Below, piece by piece: positions 6,508 through 51,348 of a DNA stretch of 64,000 nucleotides (the first letter of the stretch is position 1; every line of letters starts with the position of its first letter). A program made the position numbers and the translations under genes. The DNA comes from an uncultured Eubacteriales bacterium (GTDB lineage: Bacteria; Bacillota; Clostridia; Christensenellales; CAG-1252), in the NCBI GenBank assembly GCA_902797685.1, contig CADBTQ010000089.1:2187-66186 (forward strand), given 5' to 3'. Below the pieces are notes generated by a model that made no database searches, had not been told where the DNA came from, and saw only the letters and a list, made by a program, of their open reading frames with translations.

Positions 6508-6520
6508 ACCTCTGTTCGAC

Positions 6521-6568
6521 GAAAAAAATCCCCGTTTTGCTTGACGGCAAAACGGGGATATTTTTTTG
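6521..6568. terminator. Bidirectional Rho-independent terminator
   Basis: 13-bp stem atccccgttttgc/gcaaaacggggat, with A7 upstream and T7 downstream. It sits between convergent genes. Confidence 0.8.
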
Positions 6569-6575
6569 TTTTCGA

Positions 6576-9296: not shown

Positions 9297-9325
9297 ACGC
9301 CAATCCTCCTTATTGTGCTACTAAT

Positions 9326-9355
9326 AGTTTAGCATAGTTGCGAATATACAGTCAA
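9326..9355 (-). promoter_or_regulatory. Candidate promoter of the CrtI-like/FNR-like operon
   Basis: Minus strand reads TTGACT, 18-nt spacer, TAAACT, upstream of the AAGGAGG RBS. Confidence 0.35.
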
Positions 9356-9360
9356 TAGCC

Positions 9361-9390
9361 AAAACAAAAACACGCTGTTGCCAGCGTGTT
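9361..9390 (-). terminator. Rho-independent terminator ending the giant-gene cluster
   Basis: Perfect 8-bp stem acacgctg/cagcgtgt with a 4-nt loop, followed on the minus strand by TTTTTGTTTT. Confidence 0.7.
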
Positions 9391-9403
9391 TTGTCTCGTC
9401 GGA

Positions 9404-11983
9404 TCAGATTTCAAATGCCTGATCATGTATCGTTATTCCTTCCGGCCACTCGATCTCCTGCAACGAAACGCAGCCCGCGAAAGCGGCGGTCTCGATCACC
9501 TGAACGTGCCCGACGTTAAGAACGTTGCGAAGGGATCCGCAGTTGTAAAAAGCCCCCGACGCGATAATAGTATAATCGTCCGACAGCGTGATCTCGGTCA
9601 AATATTGGCATCCCGCAAACGCACCGATGGCGATAGACATCCCCTCCTTCATCGTCCAGTCGGAACGATCGATTCGGTCGATATAGCGTACCAAAGTGCG
9701 CCCTTTGTACAGATCGCCGTCTTCATCAACGCTGTACGCTTGATTCGCCTCGTCCACGATTATGTTGGTCACCAAAGGCAAATACATGCCGACGAGCAAA
9801 CCCAGATCGCGGACTTTGGCATTAACGTACAAAGCGGTCGTTCGTGACAAATTGCAAAACGCATATACGTCGACGATCTCGACAACTGCGGGTATATGAT
9901 ATCCGTCTTCCGCTATATTGCCCGCCATGATCAAGGTCGTACCTTTCAACAAAGACCCGTCTGCCGTATAATAGTCGGGATTTTTCGAATCGAACACAAA
10001 GCTTACGTTCGTACATTGATCGAAACACAACTCGCCCAAAGACGAAAAACCGCTTCCCAAACGGACTTCCCCCAAAAGCATACAATATCCGAATGCTTCT
10101 TGACCCAAAGAGTCGACCGACGGAAGGGATACCGATCGCAGTTTGGCGCAATTATAGAAAGCACGTGCGCCCACTTGCGTCACCAGCGGCATGGTAACGG
10201 ACGTCAGATCGACGTCGTTTTCAAACACGCCGCTTTGTATCGTCAAACACTGGGGTAAATCCAGTGTTTTCAGAGAGGTACAGCCCGCAAAAGCATTGGT
10301 ACAAAGAATAGCGCATTGATCCAAGTAGACCTCGGTCAGCGCATTGCACAGGGAAAAGCAATTTACATCGACGTAAGTCACATTGCGTCCCGCAAAGTAC
10401 TTTAGAGATTTGCAGTCGGCAAAGGCGCTTTCGGCAAGGTGAGCCCGTCCTTCGACGACCACGTTGACCAACGGGGTGGATTGAAAGGCAAACGAGTCTA
10501 CTAAAGTCACGCTGCTCCCCAGTCTGATCTGTTGTAAATTCGTCCCGAAAAACGCGCTCTTGCCGACTTGAACCAGTTGACTGTCCGAGGCAAAAGCGAC
10601 TTCCTTGAGATCAGAACTGCCCGAAAACGCGAAATTGCCTATCGTGCGAACTGTTTGCGGGATGGATACCGTTTGTACCCCGCTGTCGGCAAAAGCGTAT
10701 TCGCCCACCTCGATCACGGAGACACCGTTGATCTTGTCGGGGATGACAACTTGGATGGCGTCATGATCGTATTTGCTCACCACATACCCCTCGCCGTCCG
10801 ACGAAAGCACAAAAGTAAACCCTTCGGAACTCACTTCGTCGTTCCACTTGGCATATAGGGTAAAAACGGAAGGGATCTGCCGGACGGATTCGTACGAGAT
10901 CGTCAACTCTTCATCCACGAACCATCCTTCGAACAGGCTGCCCGTCTTGGTCGGTATGATCAAAACGGGTAAGGAATCAACGAACGTCAGCGTTTCGTTT
11001 TGTTCTCCGTTGTTTTTGACAAACGTGACCGTATACACCGTTTGGGGTTTGGGTTGCCATATCGCGTACAGTACGATGTTTTTCGTTACGCGGTCGGTAG
11101 CGAAATCGAACGGCGTTCCCGCTTCGTCTTGCCAACCCAAAAAATCAAATCCGTCCCGAACGGGTGCGGCAGGTCGGATCAAAAGAGAATTGTACTTGAC
11201 CGAAAAAGGCGAGATCGTATTTCCGCCGCCCGTTTCGAAGCGCACTTGTAAACGAGGCGATTCTTTCCACCGAGCGTAGACCTCGAAAGAGGAAGTTACG
11301 GGAAGGGTCGGATCGAATGCAAACGCCATGCTCTCGTCCACGTACCAGCCGTCAAAAACATAGCCGACGAGAATGGGGACGTCGAAATCCACCGTATCCC
11401 CGCACAAAACTTGTTTTTCTTGCAAGACGTTGCCGTCGCTGTACGCCGTCACGCGGTAAGTTTCTTTGGGGGTATCCCCCAAGGGCAACCATCTGGCATA
11501 CAGTGAAAAGGAAAACCGCACCGGTTGCGTTTGGTCATACGGCGCAGTCCCTTGCGGCGTAAGGCTCCACCCTGCGAAATCATATCCGACTCTCACGGGG
11601 ATCGGCGTTTCCACAAGCGTGCCGTTTGGCACTTCTTTGATCACCAATTCCTCCCCCGGTTGGGCATAAAACGTAACGTGGTGTACGGCGACGACTTCTC
11701 GCCACTTGGCAAATACTTCCAAGTCCCGATCGATCCCCTCTCCGTTGGGGAAAAGATCGTAAAACGGTACTTCCTGCCCGTCGGCACTAACGTACCACCC
11801 ATCAAACGAATAGCCTTCTTTGGCCGGGTCTTGAGGTAGCTCGACTTTGCCCTCTTTGACGTCCTTTACGACGATTTGTTCATCTATAACAAACCGCACC
11901 GTATATTTCGGTGCGGGATGACATCCGACCAGTGCGGTTACGAATAGTAACGACACAAGCAGCAAAAACAAGTATTTCTTCAT
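9404..11983 (-). CDS. Surface lipoprotein with five Listeria-Bacteroides (Flg_new-type) repeats and a BspA-type leucine-rich-repeat domain
   Basis: Lipobox LVGC after MKKYLFLLLVSLLFVTA. Repeats carry GY.FDGWY...(Y/F)A(K/R/I)W over aa ~27-380 (nt 10844-11905). The C-terminal ~470 aa show IP..V..IG..AF..C..L LRR units. An AGGAGA RBS lies inside the end of the upstream gene, with a 1-nt gap to the upstream stop. Confidence 0.85.
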   Translation of the reverse strand: MKKYLFLLLVSLLFVTALVGCHPAPKYTVRFVIDEQIVVKDVKEGKVELPQDPAKEGYSFDGWYVSADGQEVPFYDLFPNGEGIDRDLEVFAKWREVVAVHHVTFYAQPGEELVIKEVPNGTLVETPIPVRVGYDFAGWSLTPQGTAPYDQTQPVRFSFSLYARWLPLGDTPKETYRVTAYSDGNVLQEKQVLCGDTVDFDVPILVGYVFDGWYVDESMAFAFDPTLPVTSSFEVYARWKESPRLQVRFETGGGNTISPFSVKYNSLLIRPAAPVRDGFDFLGWQDEAGTPFDFATDRVTKNIVLYAIWQPKPQTVYTVTFVKNNGEQNETLTFVDSLPVLIIPTKTGSLFEGWFVDEELTISYESVRQIPSVFTLYAKWNDEVSSEGFTFVLSSDGEGYVVSKYDHDAIQVVIPDKINGVSVIEVGEYAFADSGVQTVSIPQTVRTIGNFAFSGSSDLKEVAFASDSQLVQVGKSAFFGTNLQQIRLGSSVTLVDSFAFQSTPLVNVVVEGRAHLAESAFADCKSLKYFAGRNVTYVDVNCFSLCNALTEVYLDQCAILCTNAFAGCTSLKTLDLPQCLTIQSGVFENDVDLTSVTMPLVTQVGARAFYNCAKLRSVSLPSVDSLGQEAFGYCMLLGEVRLGSGFSSLGELCFDQCTNVSFVFDSKNPDYYTADGSLLKGTTLIMAGNIAEDGYHIPAVVEIVDVYAFCNLSRTTALYVNAKVRDLGLLVGMYLPLVTNIIVDEANQAYSVDEDGDLYKGRTLVRYIDRIDRSDWTMKEGMSIAIGAFAGCQYLTEITLSDDYTIIASGAFYNCGSLRNVLNVGHVQVIETAAFAGCVSLQEIEWPEGITIHDQAFEI

Positions 11984-11984
11984 G

Positions 11985-12635
11985 CTATTCTCCTATTTCG
12001 TATTCACGCCCTTGCTCGCTCGTGATACCGTCCCAACGAGGACACGCCAAAAAACTATCCTTTTCGAAAACGATCTTTTCGTCTTCGCCGTCGCCCAAAA
12101 CGTAAGTCTTGCTCAGTCTTTCCATGGCGGCAAAAACGCCTTTGGCAACATAAGTGACGTTGCGGCCGAAGTATATGGACGTCAACACGCTATTGCCGCG
12201 AAAGTAATAATCCCGATAGTCGCTGTCGACCATGACCTTGGTGACGGGCAACTCTCTCTCTTCTCCGTCGATGATCACCTTAGCGGTGTCGGGAATGACG
12301 ACGTAATCGAGCGAGATACCACCCTCCCAGCCGACAAGCGCAAGAGAAACAATGGGGGTGGAATGGTCGCTCAGCACGTAGTTGCCGCGAGCATAGCCCA
12401 TAGACTCGCTCACGTCGTGCGCACCCGCGACTCTATTGCCCTCGGCGTCTATGGGAACGAAGATCTGGTATTTTAACGACGCGTTGTCGTTGTCGACACC
12501 CATCTCAAACCAAGCCGAGTTTTCGGGACGAGCAGTCCAGATCGCATAGGCGACTCCGCCGCCTACCGCCCCAAATGCCACGACCGCCGCGATCACGATC
12601 ACTATTATCCATTTTGTCGCTAATCTTTTTTTCAT
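11985..12635 (-). CDS. Membrane-anchored or secreted hypothetical protein (216 aa)
   Basis: ATG 12635 gives MKKRLATKWIIVIVIAAVVAFGAVGGGVAYAIW..SAWFE. The listed ORF start at 12680 is a TTG that would overlap the upstream gene. No strong RBS. Confidence 0.6.
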   Translation of the reverse strand: MKKRLATKWIIVIVIAAVVAFGAVGGGVAYAIWTARPENSAWFEMGVDNDNASLKYQIFVPIDAEGNRVAGAHDVSESMGYARGNYVLSDHSTPIVSLALVGWEGGISLDYVVIPDTAKVIIDGEERELPVTKVMVDSDYRDYYFRGNSVLTSIYFGRNVTYVAKGVFAAMERLSKTYVLGDGEDEKIVFEKDSFLACPRWDGITSEQGREYEIGE

Positions 12636-12646
12636 ATCGAATGTGA

Positions 12647-13339
12647 TTACGGTTCGACGACCGCTATTGCAATGCCGCAATACACGCTGCTCGTCTGCCC
12701 CAGGCGACTATCCATCAATTCGTCGACTTGGGCAATATGCATTTTCACCGAAAAGAAGATGCGTTGCGCACCTTTGACGTAAAGTCTGCCGTGGGTGTTG
12801 TCTTCCGAAACAAAGCAGGACGAGTCATGGGTCAAACAGTCGACGTCCACGCCTTCTTCGTTGACATAGTGAAAAGCGATCTCGTCAATAACGAACTCCG
12901 CTCTGCCCAACTGCGTTCCGGGATCGTTGTAATCCAAAAACATGGACAAATCAAACGACAAATAACTCTCTTTCGTTTCCTCTTGCGAAAAACCGAACTC
13001 GCCGAGGTAATCCCCGTAGGTCGCCGCCGTCTTGACGTAAGAGGGCGTAGCGGTACTTTTGGTCTCCTCGTACGTTTTGAGTACGTCGATGGGAGCGCCG
13101 TTGGCGATAGCGAACGGCAAAGCGACGGCGGGCTTCATGATGCGCTCGTCGTCATCCTCTCCGAGGACGTCTACCGACATGGCGAAGTTGATGTAGATCA
13201 CACCGTCGGCGGTGACCTCAATGGCTTGATCGGTACCGGGCGCGGTGCTATACCAGGCATACGACGAGGTAAAGCACAGCACACACGCCAGCAATACGCA
13301 CAATACCACGATTAGGTTTAACGTCAATCTTAGTTTCAT
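12647..13339 (-). CDS. Secreted or anchored hypothetical protein (230 aa) with a TM + YAWYS N-terminal signature
   Basis: MKLRLTLNLIVVLCVLLACVLCFTSSYAWYSTAPG... The N-terminus parallels that of the upstream gene product. Confidence 0.7.
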   Translation of the reverse strand: MKLRLTLNLIVVLCVLLACVLCFTSSYAWYSTAPGTDQAIEVTADGVIYINFAMSVDVLGEDDDERIMKPAVALPFAIANGAPIDVLKTYEETKSTATPSYVKTAATYGDYLGEFGFSQEETKESYLSFDLSMFLDYNDPGTQLGRAEFVIDEIAFHYVNEEGVDVDCLTHDSSCFVSEDNTHGRLYVKGAQRIFFSVKMHIAQVDELMDSRLGQTSSVYCGIAIAVVEP

Positions 13340-13345
13340 CGTTTT

Positions 13346-13354
13346 ATTATACCA
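13346..13354 (-). promoter_or_regulatory. Perfect extended -10 element (TGGTATAAT), 6 nt upstream of ATG 13339
   Basis: Minus strand reads ...GTGGTATAATAAAACGATG. No Shine-Dalgarno is present, so the geometry would give a leaderless or near-leaderless transcript. Confidence 0.4.
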
Positions 13355-13409
13355 CGTTTTAATACACTTTCTGCATAAGATTACTTATTATTAACACATC
13401 GACCGCCTT

Positions 13410-15002
13410 TTAGGTCAAATAGGTCTGCGCATACAAAGTGAGATCTTTGTCAAACGCATACGTGTTTTCCAACACTTTGACCGACGAGGGGAATAGGTTA
13501 CGTGCGGTCATTCCCGAGTAGTCGGTAGTCCAACCGTAGAACTTATAAGATCCGGACACATCGGTCACCTCGAGGTAGCGACTGCTTGCCGTATTGAGAT
13601 AATCGCCCCAGGTCTCCCCTTCGTACACGGTGAAACTGAACGTTGAGCCGCCTCTACCCGACTTATTAGTCACATTGTCGCCGTCATGGAAGGCGATATC
13701 CACGTAACGGATATTGGGAGTAGCCGGCGCCAAATTAAGAGTGATCGTGTAGGCGCGTCTCATCACGGCGTACAAACTCACGTCTTGGGTGATCACGGTT
13801 GACGTATCGAACAACAAATCCTCGTCTTCCCACGTGGCGTTGGGATCGGTGGACCAGCCCACCAAAGCGTAACCGTTTTGGGAATAGCTCGGCGCGGTAT
13901 CCGCCGTGTCAAAAGGCACGTAGTGCGTGGATATCACGGTCGAATCGTCCATACCGTAGTACGTGACGGCGGGATATTGCGTCCATCCCGCATAGAGTGT
14001 GACGTCGCCTTTGAGGTGCTCGTCCACGTAACAGGCGGGATCGACGGGCTCGGTGCATTCGGGATCGAAAAACCATCCGTCAAATCGGTATCCGACTTCT
14101 TGCGCAGTCGAGTTGCTCCGATCCGCTTGGGGCAAATCGAGGTATTCCCATCCAAACACTTTTTGGGTGGTAGTATTCACCAAATTGCCGCCATCTCTGA
14201 TCTTGCCGCCGTTGCCGTCGTAAGTGATCACGTGCATGGGATTGCTTTCGAAACGCATATTGAACACGATCTTGCTGTACATATACGACGGATCGCTCAA
14301 AGGCGTAGCGTCTTCCTCGTCCAGATCCGCGTGGGAATACTGCAGCTCACGGTAGTTTTGCTCCGATTGGAAGATGATCTGCATGCCGAACGTATACTGA
14401 TAGCCGTCTTGCATCGTAAACGTTTGGTAGACGGGAACTTCCCGTCCGTCCACCGTCTCCGTCGTATAATCCGCCGATACCAAGTAGCCGTTTTCGGGCA
14501 AGTAGATCAAGGGCTCCTCGCTATAATCTTGCACCTCGCCCGAGGGAGAGACGATCGAAAGCATATAGATACGAATGGTAAAGTACTCAAACAAGTTGTA
14601 ATCCTTGTCGTCCGGTTTGGTCACGGCGGTATACTCCTCTATTCGTTGCGTACCGTCCTCGTTGAAACCTGCCAACACGACGTCCACTTTGTTGATGTTG
14701 ACGCACATATAACCCGATTCGCTCAAATGGGCGTCCAAACCCACGGGAGTGTATTCGACCACGTACGGCGCGTCCAAGCCGGTCGCTTGCGTGCCCTTTT
14801 GACCAAAATAACGATTGTCTTCTACGGGAGTACCCGAAAAGTCGATCGTCAAATTGGCGGAGTCCGCCGCGCTGATCACGATACCGTTGGTACCGACGTG
14901 CTGCGCACCCGCCGCGCTAAACCAAGCCAAAGAGACCGCCACGATCAAAATCGTGATGACTGCAATCAATACTATGCTCAATATCAGTTTGTTTCTTGTC
15001 AT
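13410..15002 (-). CDS. Secreted or anchored protein (530 aa): TM + LAWFS signature, unassigned ~250-aa domain, C-terminal Listeria-Bacteroides repeats
   Basis: MTRNKLILSIVLIAVITILIVAVSLAWFSAAG... C-terminal repeats include GYRFDGWFFD...LYAGW, GYALVGWSTD...LYAVM and YKFYGWTTD...LYAQ. Its ATG overlaps the stop of the giant ORF (ATGA), and GAGG lies 10 nt upstream. Confidence 0.8.
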   Translation of the reverse strand: MTRNKLILSIVLIAVITILIVAVSLAWFSAAGAQHVGTNGIVISAADSANLTIDFSGTPVEDNRYFGQKGTQATGLDAPYVVEYTPVGLDAHLSESGYMCVNINKVDVVLAGFNEDGTQRIEEYTAVTKPDDKDYNLFEYFTIRIYMLSIVSPSGEVQDYSEEPLIYLPENGYLVSADYTTETVDGREVPVYQTFTMQDGYQYTFGMQIIFQSEQNYRELQYSHADLDEEDATPLSDPSYMYSKIVFNMRFESNPMHVITYDGNGGKIRDGGNLVNTTTQKVFGWEYLDLPQADRSNSTAQEVGYRFDGWFFDPECTEPVDPACYVDEHLKGDVTLYAGWTQYPAVTYYGMDDSTVISTHYVPFDTADTAPSYSQNGYALVGWSTDPNATWEDEDLLFDTSTVITQDVSLYAVMRRAYTITLNLAPATPNIRYVDIAFHDGDNVTNKSGRGGSTFSFTVYEGETWGDYLNTASSRYLEVTDVSGSYKFYGWTTDYSGMTARNLFPSSVKVLENTYAFDKDLTLYAQTYLT

Positions 15003-18000
15003 TGATTTCTCGCCTCAACTTGCAGGGGTTGTTGATCCGGCCCAAAGGTAGCCAGATAGGGTCCCCTTCTGTAACACAATAGTTCATAACCGCCTTGGAC
15101 GTAATCCGTTACCCAGTAACGGCTCGTCATCAAGTCGGACACGGAGGGACAAATGATCCGTCCCGCTTGCTGATAACTAAGCCAAGGATAAAGTTGCAAC
15201 AACGAAAGCTGACGATAGTTGGCGACGACGACGAGATTGTCGCTCGAACCGTAATCCGCCGCTTTGTCAAACATATCGTACTCACCCAATCCAAGGTCTT
15301 GGTCTTTGACGACGTATTGAGCCAAATCGCTTATAACGGCTCTCCATGCGTCGCTATAAAGCATATCGGTATACGAGGTGCCGTACGCGGTGCCCGAGAC
15401 GCCTACGTCGTTGGACAAACCTTTTGCGGGAGCGGTCGTAGACGTCGACAGCACGCCGTCCGCCAAGTAACCGACCGAGGACGGATCGACGGCTAAAGCA
15501 TACGCCCCGTCCAGTCCGCCGATAAGACCGCCGCCCGTGGACAACGGATCTTTGCCGGACAAACTGACGGCAGCGATCACGCGAGCGTTCTGAACGCCGA
15601 TACCGTCGAAGTCGTCGCTAAGAACCAATTTGCCGATGAGACCGCCCGCATATTGGGTGGAAGTATCTTCCCCACCGCCCAATGCGTCGACGTATCCCGC
15701 ATAGCGTACCGACCTCAGCTCGGTATCGATCGCTTCGCCGATGAGACCGCCCGCTTTGGCACCGTCGCCTTCGACGCTGGCAATAGCGACCGTCACGCGG
15801 CCGACAGCGGAGCTGTTGGTCACGGTCGCGTCTACCGCCAGTCCGATCAAACTACCGCCGTGCAGACCGCCCGAGATGTAAACTATGGAATTGTACAAAC
15901 GCACTCCGTCGACATAGCCGCCGACTCTCACTTCGTCACCGTTTTCATCCGTCTCAACGGCGCCTACCATGCGCCCGATCAAGCCGGCATAAGAGTTGTT
16001 GCTGATAACGGTCAAATCGTAAATGCCGTACCCTTGTCCGTAATAGTTGCCGTCCGTAATACCGGGTTCGGTAACGATGATCAGGTTGCCGTCCTCTACC
16101 ATGGTGATGTCGTTGAGTTGATAGAAACTCGGCACCCGTCCGACCGGATCCTCTTCGTCGTGAGCCGCGTTGTACAAGCCCGTCATATCCGCGCCCATGC
16201 GCGCCACGTCTTCCGCCGTACGAACGGCGAATACGTATCCGTTGGATTGCGCGTACTCGGTATTGCCCAAACTCTCGTCATAGATCAGCAAGTGCGTGAC
16301 TTGCAAAGTGGGCATATTGATAACGTAGTTAGTACTATTACGCGAAGTTCGCCAGTCCTCTTTGGTACCGACGCCGTTGTCGGTAACGTAAACGTCCAAA
16401 CCGCTATCTTCATAATCGAGGTTCTTGATAGAGACCAATTCACCCTTGAGTTTGAGATAACGGTTGCCCGAATTGAGCGCCCACCATTTGTCGTTGTCGA
16501 CTACGATATTGCACTCCGAACCAACGATATAATCGCCGTTGCTATCCATAAACCCGTCCGCTTGCAGCAAAGCGATAAAGTCCGCTTCGGTCATATAATC
16601 CACGTAGGTCTCTTCGCTCGTCCCCTTGGAGATGGAAGACACCTCGACGGGCTTGGGAGCGTTTTGCTGCCAGCTTTGCAATACGTTGGAGTACTCGATC
16701 AACAAAGTTCTCGGCACGATGTGGTATTGCGAATCGCACAATTCGCCGTTGGCGTCTTTGTACTGCAATAGCTTGACATTGCCGCCCATTTCGTTCTCGA
16801 CCCCGGTATTGAGGTCGACCACGCCGTCGACCGCCAAATCGCGGGTATAGACGCTCACGACGTAGTTTTGGTTGCCGTTGGCGTCGTACACGGTGATCTC
16901 GTAAGCGCCCGTGACGGGATTGGGTTGCAGGACGTAGTAGTGCGGGCGCTCGGCGTCGGACGCGTCGATGACGTTGAGCACCATTTCGTTGGCGTGATTG
17001 TAGCCAGCCAATGTGACGTTGAGCACCAAGTGGTTGCCCTCCAACAAGCTAGTCAACGGGAACGCCACGGGCGCACCCATGTCGGTCACGATCTTGCCGT
17101 CGGCGTCCATCGTTTGGACCAAGCCGCTCAAAACGTCTTTCCACACCTCTTGTTCGCGCACGTTCTCCACCACGCGAGTCATTCGATCGGAGATCGTCGA
17201 ATCCTCGCCCACGAAAGCGAACGCACTCGTCTTGCCATCGTAATACTTTCCGTTATCCCCTTCGCCGAAATAAGCGGTAATGGGCACGGGTACGATCTCA
17301 GCGTCAATACGCGTTACGCCTGCGGTACCGCTGGATTCGTCGATATCACTGATATAGTTGGCGGTGATCAACGACGTCCACATGATGTTGGCATAGTTGG
17401 CGTCGACCGCCGCCGTGATCTCGCCCAAACTATTATAAATACGGATCACGCTGGGATTCATCCTGATCAAATTATCACCGAGCGCAACAAAATCGGCTTT
17501 GGCGGTGATCGCGAAATCGTGTACGCTTTGACGTCTGGACTCCTCGTAAGCACTCAACGCGGTAACAAAGGTATCGCCCAACGACTGCTTGATCGAGTCG
17601 GAAGACATGTCGTAGTACACGCGAGCGGCAACCAAATTATCGCGGACCCAGTCGGACGAGATATTGGCAGCGGTAATGCCCGACAAATAATCTTGCAATG
17701 CCGTGGCATAACAAGCTTCCGCCGTCGTCAGATCGGCATTAGTGATACCGAGTTGATCGGCGACGTAGCGTGCCGCATACAAGGTCATCGCCGTCTCGAA
17801 GTTCAACTGGAATACCTGCGCATATTCTGCGATCGGATTTGCGTACACGTCCCAGTCGGATTGAGTGGGGACCAACGACAAAGATTCGCTGAGCGCTTGT
17901 TGATAACGAGAGTAGTTGGACACGTCGTTTTTACCGTCCGCACTCAATCGCGCATACCTCATGCCGACGTAGTGGATCAACCCGAGATCCGAAAGCGTTA

Positions 18001-21000
18001 CGGGGTTGCCGATCATATCGATATACTTTTCGACGATTTTAACCTCGATCTGATCGAGATACTCGCTATCGACGTACAATTCGCGAACGTCCGTAGGCAG
18101 GGAGTCGACCACGTTACGGGCATTTTCCATTCGGAATTGGTCGCCCAAGATCACGTGGGAGAAATCCGCCACAAAATGCAAGCCGTATGCGGTCACACAG
18201 GTATTGTAGTTACGATCGTTGGCGTTGACGAGGGCACGCTCGGGAGCGTCCATCATTTGATAGAAATAGACGACCAAAGCGACAGAAGCCACTTCGTGCC
18301 CATCCATTTCATACGTCACGGCATAGGTCCTGTCGGGCGACAACGAAAGCGACGAAGTATAACCGCCCGAATACTCGGAAGCGATACGCTCTTCTATACT
18401 CGTCAGACGTGACGGCGAAACGTTACCGATGTTTTCGACCCCGTTGGAAACGGCGGTATCGTAAATCATACGGACGCTACGACTGACCAAAATGCCCATC
18501 TCGCCGAACGAATCGTACTCGAACGACAAAAGCAAGTAGTAAACGGCGTCTGCGGTAGGCAACGTTGTGAATGCGTTCGCAAGATAGGTTTGGATCGTGT
18601 TGACGTCGGCCGTAACGTAATCCTTGGCAGCCGCGCTCAGTCCGTTATAGCGTTCGACCAAATAATCGAAAGTACCCACATTATACATATAGGTATCCGT
18701 CGCTATCGTAGATCCGCCATCGTAGCCTTTGTATGTAGCGTCGCCGATCAAGCGTTCCACGGCTTGATCATACAGATAGCCGTCCAACTTATCCAAATAA
18801 TGATAGTAGTTGTCGGCGTTACCTTCACTAAACGCATTATCCAAAGCGATGCGCGCCGCGATCGCCGATTGCTCGGTCGCTTTGGTCACGGCCTCGAAGT
18901 AGGGATTGCTGCCTTCCACCAGTCCTCGCATCGCCTCGTCGTTGCTTTGTAGTTTCGTCACCAATGCCTCGGACGTCCAATTGGCGGACAGTCCGTCTTG
19001 TACGGTATCGATGATGGTGCAGTAGAATTGATACAATTCGTTTTTGGCAACCACCGATTGAAGTCTGCCGTTTTGTAGTGAAGTAATCGTGCTCAGGCGT
19101 GAGAACAATTCGCGCAAAGACGATTGAACGGTCGCCTTGGTCGCGGCAAACGTGGAGGACACGCTGGGATCGGGCTCGATCGACGCGGCGCTCAACGCAC
19201 GAGACAACGCCTCAAGCGAAGCGACGTCAAGTAAGGCTTGCATGGTCAATTCCCCACCGACGGTATTGACCAAATCGTTGACGTAACCTGTAAACACGCT
19301 GACGCCATCCGTCAAGATCAAATCATTGACGGTCGATATGGCCTCGGTCAACGCAGAGTATTCACCGGCGCCCATACTAAGCGCCACTTCTTTGGCCGTA
19401 CCCGAAACACCCGTCACGGTATTACCCAGGACGTCGGTCAGAGGTAACGTCACTTGGTAGTCGTCGTCCAAACCTTGATAGAGTTGCTCGACAGTGTGCA
19501 CCCGCGAGTAGTCCATACTGGTCAAAGACTTATTCGTCAAGTCTGCCAACAGTTTGCCGACCGAAGCGCCCAGGTAATAATACAATTCCGCTTTGGTCGT
19601 ATCTAACACGTGATCGAGGCTTTCGTCCATATGATCGCGCAGTTTGCGCGCGGCGCTAAAAGCGATGTACGCATTGGCATAATCTCCATCGGCGAATAAC
19701 GTTTCGCCACGACGGACGAAAGTATCGATGGTATCAGCCAACACCAAAAACTCCATGACGGCATTATTCTCCGTCTCAACGATCGATAGATCGTATAAAG
19801 CGTCGATCAAGGCTTCGGCTCGCAACGCCGCTTGACGCTTGCAGTTGGGACATTGATAATTGTCGGGGAGGTCTTCCCAGTGCGCATTTGCCTGCAATGA
19901 CCCGATAGCATAGCCGGTGGCGGAGTCGTCTTCGTAACTGTAGTTGCTATAATCGCCCTCGCGGTATACGTAGCCGCAGTCGGGACACTTGTGCGAGGAA
20001 TAAGTATCTCTTTCAACGATGCCTTTGATAACGTACGAGAACGTGTCGTAACCGTCGATTCCCTTAACGGTATACACTGCCACTTCGTTGTACAAACGAG
20101 CAAATTTGCCGTTGCGCGGGGTGGTCGTCTCACCCGAGTCCTCGAATCGGAACGTGCTGTTTTGAGAGTCGATCTCAAAAGTGGAAACACCGTCATACAA
20201 CTTTTTGAGGATCTGGCTGCTGGATACCGTCAAGTCCACGCTGAGGGGGCGGCGGGCAATAACCCACGATAGCAGTTTACCTTCGGAAGGCAATTGATAG
20301 TTGTAGTCGAATTGACAGCTCCCATACGCTTTCGCATTGCCCTCGCTATCATAGTAAGCCGTATTGTCTACGGCAGACATAATGGACATAACCTTAGCCC
20401 GATAGTTGTCGCCCGCGTCAATGGCGACCCATCTTTCTACGCCGTTTTCGTCATATTCATCGGTTTCCAGCTTAATGTACACGATCGAGGGTACGACCGA
20501 ACCGTTACGCAAAGCGTAATAATCGACGCCCACACCCAACGCTTGCACGCTGTGTTCGATACCATCGTACACAGGCGGATTGGCGGGGTCATAGTCGATA
20601 CCGTCAACTTGCCAGTGCAAAGCGACGGTAAACTTGTTGATCGTCAGCGTCTTGTCGGAATAGGCAATGTTGTAATTGCGCTCGATATAATCCAAATCGT
20701 CGATAGAAGAGTCAAAATCGCAAGACAAAGTATAGTCACCTGCCAAACGCAATTCGTTAGTTTGACCATTGTTGGCGGCATAGCCGTCCGCATATTCGGC
20801 GGTGGGTTCCGCCAGCACCTTCAAATAAACTCTTCCCGACTGAGCGTCCTCGGCAAAAGCGGCGAAGTAAGCGCTGATGTTGTCGTATTGATCATAACCG
20901 GAGAAGGTAAAGGCAACGTCGTCCAAACTGATAAACTCTCCCGTAATGGGCGATTTCGCCAGCCACAAAACCCTCGTGTTGTATTTTGCAATACGTAACA

Positions 21001-24000
21001 GGGCGCTACCTTCCCAATTCTCATAGTTGGGATCGTTCCAAACGATAGCGGAGACCAGATAATAACCCGCCTGTTTGACGCTAGGCATAGTACGCTCCAC
21101 GCCGGCGGCTATCTTTTCGGAGACGGAAAGGACGTCGTTGCCGTCGGTATCCACGTATTGATTACCGTGTAACACGGGAGTAGCGGAGATGGAACCGCCA
21201 ACGATCGCCAAGCTGCCCGTATAAGACAGTTCGTCCACGTAGTAACGGATGTCCGCGACTCTGCCGTCGGGCAAATACATGGTATTCATCGACGTACTGA
21301 AGTGGCTTCCGCTGGGATCGGAAGGCGACTTGGATGCAACGTAAAGTCCGTAATTTGAGCCCTTGTAAACCAACGGATCGCCGTCAGACTCCAAGTAATC
21401 GGCCAAATCGAACGTATCGATAACGCCTTTGGACAAGCGAACGTTGATCGTCCGCGACCAGCCCTCGTAGTTATCCGTCTCAAACACAACGGCGGTGATA
21501 GCGTACGATCCCGCGTTGGTGATACCGTTGTTGCCGCTGTTATACGAGTCATCCGGACCGAAGTACGAGTATTCGCCGTTGACGTAAGTCATCTCGACCT
21601 CGATATCATCGTACTGATACTTGCGCGTATACGCCGTGTACGAACGATCATCACTGTTTTGACGGCTCAATATCAATTGTTTGTAGTCCTCTCCGGAGGA
21701 AGGATCTACCGCGAAGAAGTAGTAATAGTTGCCCAAGTAGTAACTGCCGAGATCCAGTTCACCCGTGTATTGGAAAGCGAAGTAGGAATCGATCGACGCT
21801 TTTTGCATAACGACGTTAGTGAACTGATTGTTTTGCAGATCATAGTTTTTGACGATGGCGTTGGGCACTTGCACGTACATCGAATACGTGCCCGCGTTAC
21901 GCATGACGGCGACCCTTACGCCATCCTTCAACATCTCGATACCCATGGCTATCACGTTGCCGTTACCGTCGGTATAGTCGTAATCTTGGGCAAATACGGA
22001 CATATGGACCACGCCGTTGGCGTCTGCGCCATAGGCGGCGACGTCTCTATCCTCACCCAATAGCTCGAACCAAGCGCTAACGGCGCGCTCTTGCCCGTTA
22101 TAAACCAACCCGTCCGAATTGGGACGATCCCATTCCACCGACGTAGAATACTTGGCAATGGTCGCAGTCTTGGTCAAATCGAGTAAGAGATAGTTGTCAC
22201 CGATCGTCTTGTACGTACCGGCGGCAATGCCTTCATATTCGCCGGATGCAATCGTCCAACTGCTAAGACGGCTGTCCGTCGAAGCAAGAACTTCATATTC
22301 GCCGGCGTCACGGTAGGTCGTGGAAACTCCGTTCCGTTGGAAACGCAGATCGAACAAGAACAAGCCGTTATTTGACAACGAGATATCGTTGGCGTCATCG
22401 CCGAGCATATCTACGAAAGCATAGGTGACGGTGTAAGGTTGCACGCCGTTGGCAGTGTTGGCGGTCAGTGACGACATGTCGCGAGCATAACCGTTATAAG
22501 TCAAGTCAAGATCCACCCATTTGATCGTAGAAACCAACGGGATCAACAAAGGCTTGGACGCCGTGGCGGTGACGGTGGTGACCAATTGATAATTGACGCC
22601 GTCGATTCCCACGAAGCCAAACACAACCTCGGTGACTTCTCGTACGTTTTTGCTGTCGTAATGCGCGGACAGAGAAACACTGTCTCCTTCGAAAGTACGA
22701 TATCCTTCGACGTAATACTCACGATCGTTGAGATCGATGGAAGTATTGTTAAAAGTAGGACGCACGCGGTCGGTACCGTCGTATACGCGACTCCAGTCGA
22801 TGCCGTCGATCAACTTAATCTGTTTGGGCAAGATAGTACCATACAACTCGTCGTAGACATAGTTATTCACCAACCCTGCCACATCGGTATCCATTGTAAC
22901 GACCATCGGTTTAGACGTACCCGCGGTCTTTGTCGCAAACGAAACGCTTACGGACAAATCGTTGGCGTCCAAAGGCGCGATACCCGTTACCGTATAAGCC
23001 GAATAATCGATCGTCGTATCGTACACCTTGGTCCAAGCGCCTAATTCGGAAGTGGAAGTGAAAGTGAGACGTCGTTTTTCGATCGTGAGTTCGCAGTATT
23101 TGATCCAAGGCTCATAATCGTCTCGGATCGATTCGTCCATAACGATCTCGGCACGCACATAGTTAGTGCCGGCGTTCTTGAGGCCCACAAACGCGTTTTC
23201 GTACAGATTGCCGTTGTCGGTATTAAATGTGTACGAAATGGTAGCGCTGTCGTCGCCTTGCATATAAGCGGAAACGTCAGACACCAAGGGAGCGTCGTGC
23301 CATTCTTCTTGGTCGTATGCGCTGACGTAGTGGGTCGCGCCGTCATAAGTGACGGTTTGCCCGACCAAATACAAATCGACGGTCGCTTTTTCGATCGTAA
23401 TGCATTGTATCAACTCCCACGAGTTAGACAGGTCGTAGTTGCCATCGTCGAAGCAAGCGATCACGACGTATTCGCCCGCATGGTACAACGAACTCGGCTG
23501 CTTACCTATCAAGGACTCGACGGAAGCGCCGTCGACTTTGACATACTCCGCCGAAGTGGCGACAAAGGACGGATCGCTCAAAGTGGAGTAATCCCAGCTC
23601 AACGTACTCGACAGATAAACCGACATGGGCAACGTCTGCGCGCCGCCCTCGGCGGATACCTTAGTCAAGGAAGCGTATACTTGAGACGTTTGATCGTAAC
23701 CGTTATAGGTCATGCCGTTTCCGGCGGGCTTATGCCATACCAACGACGTGGCAAACGGCAAAATACGATAAGGTGCGGTAGCGACCCAACTATCGTAATT
23801 GCCGTTGGCGTCGGCGGTGATCTCGGCACGAATGGTATAGGTACCCACGTCCTTGACGCCGCTCATCGCGACATACGCGCTTCCGTTCTTGGACACGGTA
23901 TAGTCGATACCGATGGTCAGTTGACGTCCGCTTGCCAACGTGTAAGTCAACGTTTCGACCGTGCTGTCCAACCAAGCGGAGGTACGGTTGTTGACGCCAA

Positions 24001-27000
24001 CGTAGTGAGTCAAACCGTCGTAAACTTGATCCGAATCGGGTCCGTTGAAAGAAAGCGAACCCAAGTAACCTTCCGCTGCGTTGATCTCGCCGTCTTTGAA
24101 TGCAAACACGAGTTTGGTGATCTCGAGGACGACGACTTTTTCGAATCCGTCGTAGTTGACGTCAGCGGCGATCGTCGCTTTGACCCATACCTTGCCCGCA
24201 TTTGTCAATCCCGCAAAGGTATGATCGAACGCACCGTTTTCGGCGGTGGCATACGTATACGATACCGGAATCACGAACGTACCGTTGGCGTTGCCGACAT
24301 ACGTGATACCATGCGGATCAACGGTGTAGTACAAAGACGCCTCGGGCGCGGTGTCGTTCCATTCGTTGAGATTGCGGCTGATCGTGGCGTAGTGGGTCAG
24401 TGCGTCGTAAGGCAGAGTCTTGCCGACCAAGTACAGTTCACCCAAGCTATCCGCCGTCCAGTGCAATTTTTCGATATGCAGCGTTACGGTGTCCGTCCAA
24501 CCTTCGTAGTTGGTCGTCTCCGCGATCGTAGCGGTGATAGAGTAATCGCCCGCGTTTTTGGTCGGGACAAAGTCCGCTCCGCCCACCGTATAGGCGACGG
24601 GGATACGCAGGGACACGCTACCCGTCTCGATCGTCAACTCGTTGATGTAGTCGTCCACCCAGTCGTCTTCGCTACGCGAAACGCCCGCAAAGTGCTCCGC
24701 GTTGTCGAAGATCAGATCGGCGCCGGTGTAATACAGTGCGCCCAATTCTCCTTCGACCCAAGCCAGTTTGCGGATACGCAAAGTCGCCGTCTTGACCCAA
24801 CCTTCGTAGTTATCGGTACCGACCACTTCGGCGCGCACGTTGTACACACCCGCGTCGGTCGCCGAAACGAAGGGATCCGAATAGGTACCCGTCGCACCCA
24901 AGAAATAGGTGTACGCCACGTCGATCGACAACGTCCCGCCCGCCAAGACGTATTGCAACGTCGTGGGTTGTTGATCCAAATAGGCGTTGGCGTCGTTGAC
25001 GCTCATATAGTGGGTCAATCCGTCGTAAGCGAATTCGGTGCCCACGAAGTATTTGACGCCCAAGTAACCTTTGGCGATATTGACGTCCGAAGTCTCGGGA
25101 TCCAAAGCAAATTGCAATTTGCTGATGGTCAAAGTCGCCTCGCCCTCGAACCCATCGTAATTGGCGGTGGAGGCGATCGTCGCTTTGACGTGATAGACTC
25201 CGGCGTTGGTAGCCGACGTAAAGTCGGAGTCATAGCTGCCGCTTGCGCCGACATAGTAGGTATAGTTGATGGCGATCACCAACTCGCCGCCCGCAAGCGA
25301 ATAGGTCAAAGACAGAGGATGCGTATTGGTATACGCGTTGGAGTAACTGACGCCGATCGTATGCGAAAGCATATCGTAAGCGGTGGTGGTACCCACGAAA
25401 TACAAATTGCCGAGTTTGCCTGCCGAAACGTCGATCGAAGCGCCGCTGAACGTGAGTTTTTTCACTTCGAAGGTGGCAAACCCTTCCCACCCCTCGTAAT
25501 CCTCGGAGGCGGCGATGGAAGCGCGAACGTACACCTTGCCGCAGTTGCTGATACCTCCAAACGTTTCCACATAGTTGTCGGAACCGTCGGTATTGTAGGT
25601 ATAAACGACGGGAACTACGACGTTGGCAGTCGGATCGCCATTGGACAGCAAACTAACGCCGTCTTGTTCGACCAAGTAACTCAAGCTTGTCAACAAGGAG
25701 GGGTTGAACGCGTTGTCGGTGTTGACGCCCACGTAATGGGTAAGCATATCGTAATAGGACTCGCCGCTCACGAAGTAGAGTTGATCGAAGTCGTGTTGGG
25801 CGCCCGTCCACTTGATCTTTTGGATAGTCAGTTCGACCTCGCCTTCCCATCCGTCGTAGTTGTTGGTCTCCGCTACGATCGCTTTGATCGAATAGGTCGC
25901 GGAATGCAGCGCGCCGTCAAACGCGTTGTCATAATTGCCCTCGCCCACGTGATAACGGTATTCCACGGGGATCTGCAAGGTCAGATCGCCGTACTGATAG
26001 GTCAACTCGGTCACGTTTTGATCCACGTACGAGTCCGCCGTATGAGATACGCCGACGTAGTGGGTGGTCGCGTCGTAAGTGCGGGTCGTACCCGTCAAAT
26101 ACAGTCTGCCCAAATGACCGGCGTCGTCGATCCATTGCAATTTGTCGATCGTAAAGGTCGCGGTATCCGTCCAACCTTCGTAGTTGATCCCTTCGACGAT
26201 ACTGGCGCGGATGTTGTAGACGCCAGCGTCTTGGCAATACTGGAATGCGTCGTCATAGTTGCCGCTGCCTAGGGCGCCCTTGTAATACGTATAAGCGACG
26301 GGAACGGCAAGATCGTAGTTGCTTCCGTTGCCGATGACAAAGCCGTGCCGCTCTTGGTCGTACACATAATACAAAGTGGTCACGTATTCGTTGTTGTACG
26401 CGTTGACGGTATTGACGCCCACGTAGTGGCGAGCACCGTCGTACAATAGCGAATTGCCCTCGTTGCCGACGAAGTACAGTTGATCCAAGTGACCGCTTTG
26501 CCCGTTCCACTTGAGCGCGTCGATTTGCAAAGTCGCCGTATCCGACCAAGCGCCGTAGTTGCCGTTGACGTCCGCTTCGATCACCGCTTTGACGTAGTAA
26601 AGCCCCGCGTCGCGCTGACCGACGAAGGAAGATCCGTACGTCGACGTGCCATCGGTGTTGTACACATAGCTGACGGGGATCACCAAACTGTTGGATCCCA
26701 GTTGCACCGTGATGCCCGAAACGAGTTGATCGAGCCAAGCGCTTCCCTCGGTCACGCCGAGATAGTGAGTGCTCGCGTCAAAGAGGGTCTCGCCGCTGTT
26801 GAGGCGCAGATCGCCGATCTCCCCTGCGACGTATTGCAAGGGCGAGATGACCAAACTGGCGTCGCGAGACCACGCTTCGTAGTTGTTGGCGTTGCGGTCA
26901 TTAGCATAACCGACGACCGCTCTCAAATAGTAGGTACGACTGTTGACGGCACCGGTAAAGACGTTCTCATAGACATCTCCGCCGTCCACGTTGTAGTAGT

Positions 27001-30000
27001 AAGTGATCGTCGCCACGCCGTCGGTTCCCAACAAAGACACTTCGCTCAAAGGCGTGCTGCTGTAAGCGTCGGCTGTGTTGACGTATGCGTTGTGCATCAA
27101 CATATCGTACTTGAACTCGTTGCCAACGAAGTACAGCGAGGTCAGTTGACCATTGCCGAATCTGGCACGCTCGATAGTCAAAGTAGCGGATTGAGACCAC
27201 GCTTGCCAGCCACCGTCGGCAGGAGACGCAACATGTGCGGTCACCACATAAGTGCCCGCGTCGATCACGCCCGTAAAGGCGCCCTTGTCCACTCCGTTTT
27301 GAGTATACGTGTAGGTAACGCCGACGTCGATCGTACCACCCGCCAACACGTACGAGAAACTGCTTGCGAGCGAGTTGCTCCAACCATCGGTACGGCTGAC
27401 GCCCGTATAGTAGGTATTGGTGTCGTAGGATACGGTGTGATCCACGATATACAAACCGCCCAAATATCCGTTGGCAACGTCGGCGGCGCCCGTCGAAGGA
27501 TCGACGGCAAACACCAGCTGTTTGACGAGCAAGGTGGCGGTATCCGTCCACGCGTCGTTGTTGACGGTAGCGGCGATACTCGCCGTGATCGTATAAGTCC
27601 CCGCCACCGAAGTGCCGTCGAACGCCACGCCGCCTTGTTGATACACTACAGGCAAACTGACGTTGCCGTCGAAGTAGGTGATCGCATCCACTCTCGCGTC
27701 CACCGATTCGTCCGACTTGCTGACGCCCACATAGTGGCTCAACTTGTCGTAAGCGACGGTGACGTCGCCGAAGTAGAGCGTTCCGACATAACCTTTGGCG
27801 GGTTGTCCTTCGGCAAAGTGCAATTTGTTAATGGTCAAACGAGCCGAAGAGGTCCACGCGACGTAGTTGTCGCCCTCCGCGATATGCGCGGTAACGTCGT
27901 AAGTCCCCGCGTCGGTGGCACCCGTAAACGCTTGGGCTTCGCCGCCGTTGTAGGAGGCGGTATAACTGACGCTCACGGTCAAGCCGAGGGACTCGTAGTG
28001 AATAACGGAGACCATATCGTCCAAATATGCGTTAGAACGATTGACCCCCACGTAGTGCGAGATCGCATCGTATGCGCGTTCGTTGCCGACCAAATAGAGT
28101 TGACCGAGGTGTCCGTCTTCGTCTGTAAAGCGAAGTTTTTGGATCTGCAGCGTGGCGACGCTCGTCCAGAACTCGTAGTTTTGCGCTACGTCGTTATCTT
28201 CGATCTCGGTCAACGCTTGCACGTAATAGGTACCGGCGTTGATCGCACCCGCAAAGGTATTGGGGTAAGTATCGTTATCCACGGTGTTGTAATAGTATCT
28301 GATCTTCGCTGTGCCGTCGCCCGAAAGCAACGCCACCGTTGCGGTTGCGCTATCCAAATATTCGTCGATGGTGTTGACGCCCACGTAATGGCGATCAGCG
28401 TCATAGATGCGGGTACTTCCGTTGAGATACAAGGCGGGCAAATGACCCAATGAACCGTCGAATCTCACTTTGTCGACAATGACGGTACCTGTCAAAGTCA
28501 CGTCCTCGTAGTCGCTATATCCGCCTACTTCGTGGTGCAAAATCGCGGTCAACGCATATTCGCCCGCGTTTTTGATCCCCGCAAAGGAAGATCCGTTAGC
28601 TAGCAAAGTGACCGAGGCGGTATCGCCTAACGCCAAACCGTCGCTCAACGCCATACCGCTCGGACGAATGCTAAACGATGACACGAACGATCCGTTGTCG
28701 TCCAAGTAGGTTTGGGTCGCACCGTTGACATTGACGTTGACGTGCAAGGTATGCGTATCATAGACTTTTTGGAACACGCTGCCGCTTTCTTCGATCAAAC
28801 CGAACGTCCTCGCTTGCTCGTTGCCGCTGACCGCCGCCCACATCGTGGCTTTGCTTACCGTCAACGTAGCGGTTGCGCTGTAAGCGTTGTAATCGCGATG
28901 CGATACGGTGGCGGTGATTTCGTACGTGCCGGCGTGCAAAGCGCCCGCAAACGCCGAGTCGCCCACCGTATACGATACTGCCGCTTGCTCCGCAAACGAA
29001 GTATTGGTACTGGGACTGACCGTCACGGTATCGCCAAGCGAAGCGCGCGAGATGGCGTTGGCATTGGTGGACGTGACCAAATTGAGGAAGTAGTCGCTAC
29101 CGTCGTAAGTCACCGTTTGTCCGGCAAAGGATATGCCGGAAATGGTGGCGGGCGTAATGGTCAGAGTCCCCGCGATCGTCTTGGCAAAGTAGTTGGAGTT
29201 GTACGCGATCGTATTGCTTGCTGCGTTTTCGTTGATATAGACGGTGACGGTATAAACGTCGGCATGCAACATCGACACTTTGCCGTTACCGTACACGATA
29301 CCGTCCGAACTTCCGCTCGCGGAAGACACGCTGTAGCGGATATTGACGTTTTCTTCAAACTGCGTCTGATTGTCGGTGACCGCATAATCTTTGCTTTCGC
29401 CGGTATAAACGCCGGACACGGAAGAAACGCGAATGGACGTGATATCCACCGGCCAAATGATCATCGTATTGGTCAAAACTTTTTGCTCGTAATCGTTGAC
29501 CGCTTCGCCTATGGCGGTGATGGTCGCCGTGATGCGGTAACTACCCGCGTCTTTGGCGGTCGCGTTGTCGAATGCACCCCTATCCGCAAAGCTGTTAGAA
29601 CCGGGAGCGGCGTATTCGTAGGTATAGGTCACGCTTGCCAAATCGGAAGTGTTGGCGCCGCCGATCGTCAAGGTGATCTGCGATACGATAGACGTGTTGA
29701 TGATGTCCGCGCTACGGCTGACGCCCACCGAATAATAGGAATTGGTGTAGTCGTAATGTCTTGGGTTGGTACCGTCCGCATTGGTGGTCAACTCGGGCAA
29801 ATTGAGATAGACGCTCTCGATCTGGATCGCGTTGACGGTGACGGTGACCTCGGACAAGACGTAATCGACGTAGTTGTCGTTGTGCAAGACGGCGCTTATG
29901 CGATAGGTACCCGCATGCAGTAGCGAATGGGTATTGGTGACCGTACCGACGGGATTGGTGTACACGTAGGTATAGGTGATCTCCGCCTCGTCCGTACCCG

Positions 30001-51316: not shown

Positions 51317-51348
51317 GCGAATGATTTGACGATACGGGGTGATACCGC

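Follow-up and report, generated by a model that had tools for sequence, protein, structure and literature searches.

Within a 64-kb stretch of DNA from an uncultured Eubacteriales bacterium (64,000 nucleotides of contig CADBTQ010000089.1, hereafter the window), a giant gene for a surface protein is followed by four further genes, here designated A, B, C and D. A functional link between the four genes and the giant gene is supported, as far as sequence comparison reaches, since eight independent loci whose flanks are unrelated all have the arrangement giant-A-B-C-D. The explanation that we favour, if tentatively, is that A–D form a conserved accessory module of giant surface proteins in uncultured gut and rumen Clostridia, in which A, B and C would share a processing signal and the module proteins would assemble with the giant. 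All coordinates are positions in the window, where the giant gene and A–D lie on the minus strand (Table 1).

Homologous loci were found by looking up the contigs that encode members of the A family and by scanning genomes with an alignment of C (A4). The complete order was present in the window and in L001 (a twin at 98%), in L002/L003, L007, L008/L009, L010, L011, L012 and L017. The gene directly 5′ of the A homologue encoded a giant of 12,317 aa in L002/L003, of at least 7,229 aa in L007 and of at least 10,184 aa in L012; in L008–L011 and L017 a large gene at this position was cut by the contig end. B orthologues occupied the same position in every full locus, and D was the last gene of the module in all of them. 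The flanking genes differed from locus to locus (alkaline phosphatase, Spo0A, SpoVT with SecG, nucleoside kinases), indicating that the conserved unit is the module and not its neighbourhood. The first-pass annotation of the window, made from its letters, had proposed looking for the four genes beside giant genes in related genomes, and the eight Clostridia loci bear out that grouping. A partial locus was also recovered, with B-C-D on a short contig (L016). More distant variants retain the core: an A-like gene follows a giant-type C-terminal end with NYRQL... and GG[LV][IV]G motifs in L013 and L014, and behind the A-like gene of L004 and L014 stands one resembling B, with SLAWY or TYAWF and, further on, VDEL or PAV. 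A genome scan with the C-terminal 700 aa of the giant gave no match. The eight loci come from Clostridia metagenomes or metagenome-assembled genomes (MAGs), and the source records name Clostridia MAGs, one of them Christensenellaceae, with which the flanking Spo0A and SpoVT genes agree; MAGs carrying the module include CAYJBY01 (Christensenellaceae), CAMPCZ01 and JAFXIQ01, as well as the genome of MBQ4444460.

The genes of the module are closely packed. As first annotated, the ATG of A (15002–15000) overlaps the TGA of the giant gene (15001–14999) in an ATGA that can be read directly in the sequence (aatcaATGAcaag), and 1 nt separates the TAG of C from the ATG of D (ggagaaTAGcATGaag). The giant/A junction overlaps in four loci (window, L003, L007 and L010), while the C/D spacing is 1 nt in the window and L011, 2 nt in L003, L007, L010 and L012, and a 4-nt overlap in L017. 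Such tight spacing and overlaps represent packing for co-translation.

The N-termini of the products tie the module together in a second way. All five products bear N-terminal export or anchor signals, and A, B and C follow a common plan of a basic tip, a hydrophobic helix of 21–24 residues and then a short motif: MTRNK, a 21-residue helix and SLAWFSAAG in A; MKLR, a helix and SYAWYSTAPG in B; MKKRLATK, a helix and GGGVAYAIW...SAWFE in C. Each of these elements is present as the first-pass annotation described it, although its phrase 'three small products' does not suit A, a protein of 530 aa. The element behind the helix reads [ST]-x-A-W-[FY] in A and B and x-[YL]-A-x-W in C, and its tryptophan is invariant in all three families. 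When the six frames of the 64-kb window were searched with a regular expression for a hydrophobic run followed by the motif, the three N-termini of A, B and C were the only matches; among the other exported proteins of the window, the pullulanase has VNA↓EE (the arrow marking the cut), and the solute-binding protein and an 805-aa protein with CBM26 starch-binding modules have lipoboxes. The motif of A, B and C, as a predicted element, exceeds chance.

To follow the motif through the A family, an exhaustive HMMER search was performed with the first 258 residues of A, which returned 35 proteins at E≤0.001, including two spurious repeat proteins and the query itself. Word-indexed homologue searches yielded nothing with the A N-domain, two matches with the profile of alignment A1 and, with B, a 99% twin as the sole match. 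Alignment A1 (23 A-family sequences, too variable for the locus scan) has invariant W27, G67, G70, F141 and F211, with A26 at least 90% conserved. Among 34 cluster representatives of the A family, cleavage-site position P3 is Ser in 25 and Thr in 9, P1 is Ala in 31 (Thr in 2, Ser in 1), P1′ is Trp in 34/34 and P2′ is Phe in 22, Tyr in 11 and Val in 1. In B, W29 is invariant in alignments A3 and A5, and all syntenic-locus orthologues examined (seven aligned, more read) conform to [STA]-x-[AS]-W-[FY], their motifs being SRAWF, SYSWY, AIAWF, TYAWY, SLAWF, TYSWF, SYAWF and SAAWY. In C, alignment A4 (29–56% identity to the window protein) has invariant A31 and W33, and the consensus [ASTV]-[YL]-A-[IYV]-W is kept in all orthologues examined (again seven aligned, more read), as VYAYW, AYAIW, SLAVW, TYAIW, SLAIW, TLAVW, VLAIW and SLAYW. 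The SAWFE of C was rejected as a second motif, since it is not conserved among orthologues.

Apart from this element the three proteins are unrelated. Pairwise BLASTP among A, B and C gave nothing significant outside the N-terminal signal region, and hhalign comparison of the families found similarity only over the N-terminal 35–80 columns, at probabilities of 77–91% that over transmembrane segments are inflated by composition and to that extent tell less for a common signal. After removal of the first 35–46 residues the probability fell below 1%; thus a signal has been grafted onto three unrelated ectodomains, and the likeness does not reflect paralogy. The profile similarity among the three proteins that the reading of the first-pass annotation would call for is accordingly absent beyond the signal region. 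Paralogy of the A and B ectodomains was rejected despite their similar-looking strand order, on the same hhalign result (<1%), and type IV pilin or pseudopilin signals were rejected because G↓F-T-L-x-E is missing and the helix stands directly behind the basic tip. We therefore read the shared element as a processing signal and not as inherited paralogy.

Since small residues are conserved at −3 and −1, the element is likely to be a signal-peptidase site; a cut after the conserved small residue would give [ST]-x-A↓W-[FY] in A and B and x-[YL]-A↓x-W in C. The general features of Sec substrates of type I signal peptidase (SPase I) were found in the 34 A sequences and in the B and C N-termini, namely a basic n-region, an h-region and small residues at −3/−1. 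The exception concerns the absence of an aromatic residue at P2′: this position is F, Y or W in all N-termini examined but one, and the peptidase is therefore probably of the endoplasmic reticulum (ER) type. SipW, an ER-type (Ser-His) peptidase, cuts TasA at GGGTWA↓AFND, and an aromatic P2′ residue, found in 0/143 verified substrates of the P-type enzyme LepB, impairs P-type processing (PMC10269814). In our reading it is this aromatic residue, which in A and B has a second one beside it at P1′, that turns precursors of the TasA class into poor P-type substrates and into clients of SipW. The residue pattern of the TasA site (Thr/Ser at P3, Ala at P1, aromatic P2′) recurs here, with F/Y at P2′ in 33/34 A sequences and all B sequences examined and W in all C sequences examined. 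A precedent for such sharing is the Clostridium perfringens operon sipW-bsaA-bsaB-bsaC, which encodes several different secreted proteins together with SipW, the peptidase that its authors propose to remove their signal sequences (PMC11580942). With the NCBIfam model for SipW-dependent-type signals (TIGR04088, curated cut-off 19 bits), the A homologue P0013, which lies within a full five-gene locus, passed at 20.9 bits, and two C proteins scored below the cut-off (L010_C, 15.6 bits; L003_C, 10.2 bits). The likeness to SipW signals noted in the first-pass annotation is thus borne out: the element is family-invariant and P0013 passes TIGR04088, although the window's own proteins fail the model. 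We would class the putative signal of A, B and C as a SipW-type variant with Trp that falls outside the curated TIGR04088 family.

According to the explanation we favour, A, B and C would be exported by Sec and then cut at the motif, or held until cut, by a SipW-like ER-type peptidase encoded elsewhere in the genome. Thereafter the flexible segment of 15–20 residues behind the motif, together with the ectodomains of binding type, would associate with lipoprotein D and with the giant's C-terminal domain. This meeting would take place at the membrane-wall interface, where the partners would hold, orient or extend the giant adhesin and so anchor or present it.

Several observations weigh against this account. 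The window A, B and C gave no TIGR04088 match, either as full proteins (E≤1) or as 63–68-aa N-termini (E≤10), and over 35 N-termini any match at all was obtained for 4/35, with one passing. Compared with the TasA class, the motif has W where F, Y or A stands there, and it is without Asp at P4′. No signal-peptidase gene was detected in the window (no S24/S26 Pfam match among the open reading frames (ORFs) scanned), no credible peptidase with an S-M-x-P Ser-box was found among ORFs of 90–600 aa in the window and L001–L014, and no sipW or signal-peptidase gene was present in the flanks of up to 10 kb fetched around the homologous loci; the statement of the first-pass annotation that the window holds no SipW-like peptidase is thereby borne out by both Pfam and Ser-box. 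The helix of A runs without a polar or helix-breaking c-region, so that a permanent transmembrane anchor is equally possible for it. A complex between A–D and the giant is something that we infer from synteny alone. Finally, one locus (L015; CAMPCZ010000012.1, uncultured Clostridia MAG, 6259–10526) contains A-B-C without an adjoining giant or D; because the trio occurs there by itself, A-B-C may be the functional core of the module.

The alternative that survives best, although we consider it somewhat unlikely, is that the helices of A, B and C are uncleaved type-II anchors, the Trp-aromatic pair serving as an interfacial belt or helix-packing motif that would bundle A, B and C, perhaps with the N-terminal helix of the giant, while the aromatics at P1′/P2′ would prevent cleavage. 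Stretches of 21–24 hydrophobic residues are enough to cross the bilayer, the helix of A enters the motif without a polar c-region and in the AlphaFold model continues through it (residues 2–30), an aromatic P2′ blocks P-type peptidases (PMC10269814), and neither the window nor the flanks hold a linked peptidase gene. Membrane tethering is moreover a theme of the module, as D orthologues trade a lipobox (window, L003, L007, L010 and L017) for a transmembrane helix (L008:10638-, L011:5035- and L012:14219-). However, a belt leaves unexplained the Ser/Thr at −3 (34/34) and the Ala at −1 (31/34) in the A family; B and C have typical c-regions (TSS-Y-A, NSS-Y-S, GGG-V-A-Y-A); and one member of the families scores above the cut-off of a model derived from SipW substrates that are cleaved.

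It is also possible, if rather unlikely in our view, that the N-termini are ordinary Sec signal peptides cleaved by the housekeeping SPase, that W-[FY] merely represents conserved first mature residues with no dedicated enzyme, and that A–D are independent, co-expressed binding proteins that form no obligate complex. The n-region, h-region and small −3/−1 residues fit the general rule, no sipW gene is linked, the ectodomains resemble binding modules (sandwiches like those of carbohydrate-binding modules (CBMs) and collagen-binding domains, leucine-rich repeats (LRRs), Flg_new), and the rule on aromatic P2′ residues comes from LepB and may not hold for the P-type SPases of Clostridia. Generic export does not account for an invariant Trp at P1′/P2′ in three unrelated families, a motif that the window's other exported proteins do not have, and the zero count of aromatic P2′ residues among the 143 verified P-type substrates (PMC10269814) points the same way. 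In addition, the strict order and the start/stop overlaps, maintained at 22–56% identity, favour stoichiometric partners.

The giant proteins share a feature at their extreme C-terminus. In the window (15002–15040) and in L003, L007, L008, L010, L011 and L012 they finish with a short tail in which hydrophobic residues alternate with polar ones (LQVEARNQ, LLIEVQVQ, LAVEVIS and TIAAIE are examples); all giants examined have such tails. The tail resembles a terminal β-strand and could be a docking element. In the BsaA operon system a disordered N-terminal loop works in donor-strand exchange (PMC11580942). A bolder version of the processing account, one that we regard as distinctly improbable, would make A, B and C clients of an unlinked ER-type peptidase, with Trp-first N-termini that undergo donor-strand exchange with the giant tail to build a heteromeric, sortase-independent stalk. 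The disordered N-terminal extensions and the strand-like tail would, on that long shot, complete one another's β-sandwiches. If true, the stalk would take a starch-binding scaffold of 11,686 residues across the Gram-positive wall and would constitute a previously undescribed surface-assembly system of gut Clostridia.

Structural comparison bears on a further proposal, that A, B and C are TasA/camelysin-type subunits released by SipW, which form donor-strand polymers, as a fibre or a sheath, around the giant. The AlphaFold2 model of A (alignment A1; mean predicted local distance difference test score (pLDDT) 88) has a helix at residues 2–30, an unstructured stretch at 33–46 (pLDDT <50) and a sandwich at 50–254, and that of B (11 sequences; pLDDT 77) has a helix at 2–27, disorder at 25–45 (pLDDT <50) and a β-sandwich. 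Foldseek searches of the Protein Data Bank (PDB) returned weak, generic matches: for A, CBM3a (4b9f, E=1.4e-3, template-modelling (TM) score 0.36) was best, followed by other jelly-rolls; for B, the collagen-binding domain of ColH (3jqw, E=1.1e-3, TM 0.37) was best, and its other weak matches included CBM6 and the enterotoxin of C. perfringens (C-terminal domain). TasA and camelysin entries were absent from the top 50 for both proteins. TasA and CalY in the PDB gave no sequence match to single sequences or family profiles (E≤10), and Peptidase_M73 (Pfam) had no match in window A, B and C at E≤1; the TasA/CalY/camelysin-type reading given in the first-pass annotation was therefore not sustained. 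TasA is itself a jelly-roll β-sandwich, and a remote jelly-roll relation of A and B to it may exist on the models. Because the three ectodomains are mutually non-homologous they are not paralogous fibre subunits, and we do not regard A, B and C as fibre subunits of the TasA kind. The fibre or sheath proposal is thus very unlikely: the SipW-like signal, the 15–20 disordered residues behind the motif where TasA and BsaA carry the donor strand (PMC11580942), the sandwich fold and the FimG pilins at ranks 19 and 26 among the weak matches of B speak for it, but there is no Peptidase_M73 match, no TasA, CalY or BsaA-like structure in the top 50 for A or B (best TM 0.36–0.39, to CBM or collagen-binding domains), no sequence relative in the PDB even with family profiles, C is an LRR protein among mutually unrelated ectodomains, and no sipW adjoins the cluster, unlike every characterised TasA-type operon.

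Turning to the individual proteins, A consists of a signal or anchor helix, the motif, a linker, a β-sandwich and Flg_new repeats. Its first 258 residues had no significant Pfam or NCBIfam match and no PDB sequence match, and the predicted β-sandwich is a family new to curated collections. B comprises a signal helix, the motif, a disordered linker and a β-sandwich; over its whole length no significant Pfam or NCBIfam match was found, family profiles of A and B against PDB sequences gave no meaningful relative, and the predicted sandwich of B is a second family new to curated collections.

C combines a signal helix and motif with a small N-domain, which has a conserved S-L-K-Y-Q-I-F-V-P, and a short BspA-type LRR. 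The family profile matched BspA-type LRR structures in the PDB at positions 140–210 (4gt6, E=1.9e-16), and alignment A4 compared with D by hhalign placed this segment on D residues 789–853 (probability 86%, E=5.5e-6). Pfam LRR_5 scored C alone at E=0.11 (12.8 bits, below the gathering score), and outside this weak hit no significant Pfam or NCBIfam match was found in C. D contains five Flg_new units (170.2 bits, cut-off 27) and four LRR_5 blocks (209.3 bits, cut-off 27.7; Pfam); it passes both gathering scores and has a lipobox, in agreement with its first description as a BspA-LRR/Flg_new lipoprotein. The D of L011 reads ...GLTAYFV, an aromatic pair behind Ala that is reminiscent of the A/B/C motif.

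Table 1. Positions of the module genes and of their main features in the window
Feature	Position	Strand	Remarks
Giant gene	14999..50059	-	11,686 aa
Gene A	13410..15002	-	530 aa; first gene 3′ of giant
Motif S24-L-A-W-F28 (A)	14919..14933	-	end of A hydrophobic helix; putative site SLA↓WF
β-sandwich ectodomain of A, aa 47–256	14235..14864	-	conserved loop Y-x-G-Q-T-G-x-x-Y-x-G-x-D-x-P-Y
Flg_new (Listeria-Bacteroides repeat) units of A, aa 258–410	13773..14231	-	PF09479, E=2e-12, 2 stretches, 47 bits; TIGR02543
Gene B	12647..13339	-	230 aa; starts 70 nt past A stop
Motif S26-Y-A-W-Y30 (B)	13250..13264	-	putative site SYA↓WY
Gene C	11985..12635	-	216 aa from ATG at 12635; 11 nt past B stop
Motif A29-Y-A-I-W33 (C)	12537..12551	-	GGG just before; putative site AYA↓IW
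LRR_5-like C-terminal segment of C, aa 141–213	11997..12215	-	2–3 LRR_5-like units
Gene D	9404..11983	-	859 aa; ATG 1 nt past C TAG
Lipobox L18-V-G-C21 (D)	11921..11932	-	after signal helix; read directly
Terminator-like hairpin	9367..9392	-	11-bp stem, 4-nt loop, T-run; just past D

From the giant gene to D the cluster spans 40,656 nt. The open frame of gene C reaches back to a TTG at 12680, and the ATG listed in Table 1 is best read as its preferred start. A terminator scan of 9000–16000 listed 14 terminator-like sites against 8.2 expected; the hairpin after D had the longest stem of the scan and was the sole site of the cluster outside coding sequence. The terminator recorded in the first-pass annotation is therefore there, and it is a strong one, but it is not the only such site, weaker ones lying within coding sequence. 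One of these is a GC-rich 8-bp stem (7 GC) followed by TTTGTT at 11894–11916 (minus strand), within the first 90 nt of D, which may have arisen by chance or may serve as a C/D attenuator. The minus strand also has an extended −10 element (TGgTATAAT) at 13346–13354, which ends 6 nt before the ATG of B; no Shine-Dalgarno sequence was seen before B, nor any obvious ribosome-binding site before C. The −10 element could act as a promoter inside the cluster, from which B-C-D would be transcribed without a leader.

Comparison of positions 6576–15002 with L001, a second strain, showed 98.7–99.3% DNA identity for the accessory genes, with synonymous to non-synonymous codon differences of 10:9 in A, 3:2 in B, 6:1 in C and 13:18 in D. 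For the flanking oxidoreductase genes the identities were 94.7% and 97.4%, and the corresponding ratios 63:12 and 27:5. These values suggest that the cluster was recently exchanged or swept, with selection on it relaxed or diversifying.

Features of the giant protein are a transmembrane helix or signal at its N-terminus, arrays of repeats, three CBM26 modules (34034–35293, 120 bits) and a non-repeat domain at its C-terminus; no LPXTG was found in it. Upstream of it, positions 51349–63985 encode a maltodextrin ABC transporter, a pullulanase and two CBM26 proteins; downstream of the cluster lie oxidoreductase genes, and elsewhere in the window there are a few unrelated genes. Taken with its upstream neighbours, the whole region looks like a locus for starch attachment and starch uptake. 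The homologous module loci outside the window have differing neighbours. The related contig L013 (475–2136) encodes a fusion of an A-type N-domain (LSFAWFSAAG...) with a C-terminal region resembling CBM26, next to a MalK-like ABC/pullulanase/permease operon as in the window and downstream of the end of a protein with the GG[LV][IV]G motif. Because the giant has CBM26 modules, the upstream genes serve starch utilisation and the A-domain of L013 is joined to a CBM26-like region, attachment to starch is a reasonable role in this lineage.

Between the giant gene and its upstream neighbours lies a non-coding leader of 1.3 kb (50060–51348), which contains three direct repeats of ~53 nt, at 50291, 50618 and 50808, and shorter repeat families; an Rfam scan of the leader gave no match. 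A 154-aa ORF at 50377–50841 was considered as a hidden peptidase and rejected, as it has no Pfam match and is built of the DNA repeats; it is probably an artefact of them. At the far end of the window, a recombinase zinc-ribbon fragment (142–924) and a DUF6994 gene (2395–3147) may be remnants of a mobile element, apparently unrelated to the cluster.

Uncultured Firmicutes of the gut and rumen commonly have surface proteins of >10,000 residues, and we know of no established mechanism for the export, anchoring and display of such giants without LPXTG/sortase signals. A four-gene partner set kept across lineages provides concrete candidates for a giant-protein display machinery. Because three unrelated proteins share an invariant Trp variant of the site, our results also suggest that signals of the SipW type extend far outside the proteins of biofilm fibres and that most of them escape current models such as TIGR04088. 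Since the giant has CBM26 modules and adjoins an operon for pullulanase and maltodextrin transport, the module may be the basis on which starch granules are bound in the gut. No curated families or published descriptions of the A, B and C families or of the module were found; the present alignments would allow families to be defined for the N-domains of these three proteins, which are unclassified.

The novelty lies in the fixed set of partners and in the signal's Trp variant, whereas giant adhesin operons and SipW-type signals are kinds already known. The SipW-dependent signals of Bacillus TasA, TapA and CalY and of C. perfringens BsaA, BsaB and BsaC likewise have a basic tip, a long hydrophobic helix, Thr/Ser at P3, Ala at P1, an aromatic P2′ and a flexible segment behind the site, with one signal common to several different proteins of one operon. 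They differ in that Trp is fixed here at P1′ (A, B) or P2′ (C) without Asp/Asn at P3′–P4′, the window proteins fail TIGR04088, no sipW lies in the operon or nearby and the cargo folds are not TasA-like. As for TasA/camelysin proteins (Peptidase_M73), these too are exported Firmicute β-sandwiches of ~200–250 residues encoded in small operons with partners, but there is no sequence, profile or Foldseek similarity to them, and here the proteins are partners of a giant adhesin of >10,000 aa. BspA-type LRR/Flg_new (internalin-like) proteins are usually annotated as stand-alone adhesins; D is a clear member, C ends in LRR_5-like units and A has Flg_new, whereas in the module they occupy fixed places among five genes, and A, B and C have unclassified N-domains. 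Other very large bacterial adhesins are also encoded as a large repetitive adhesin beside a small fixed set of helper genes. Those helpers are in general ATPases, translocon paralogues, glycosyltransferases, outer-membrane components or sortases, none of which is present here; in contrast, the helpers of the module described here are themselves exported binding-type proteins.

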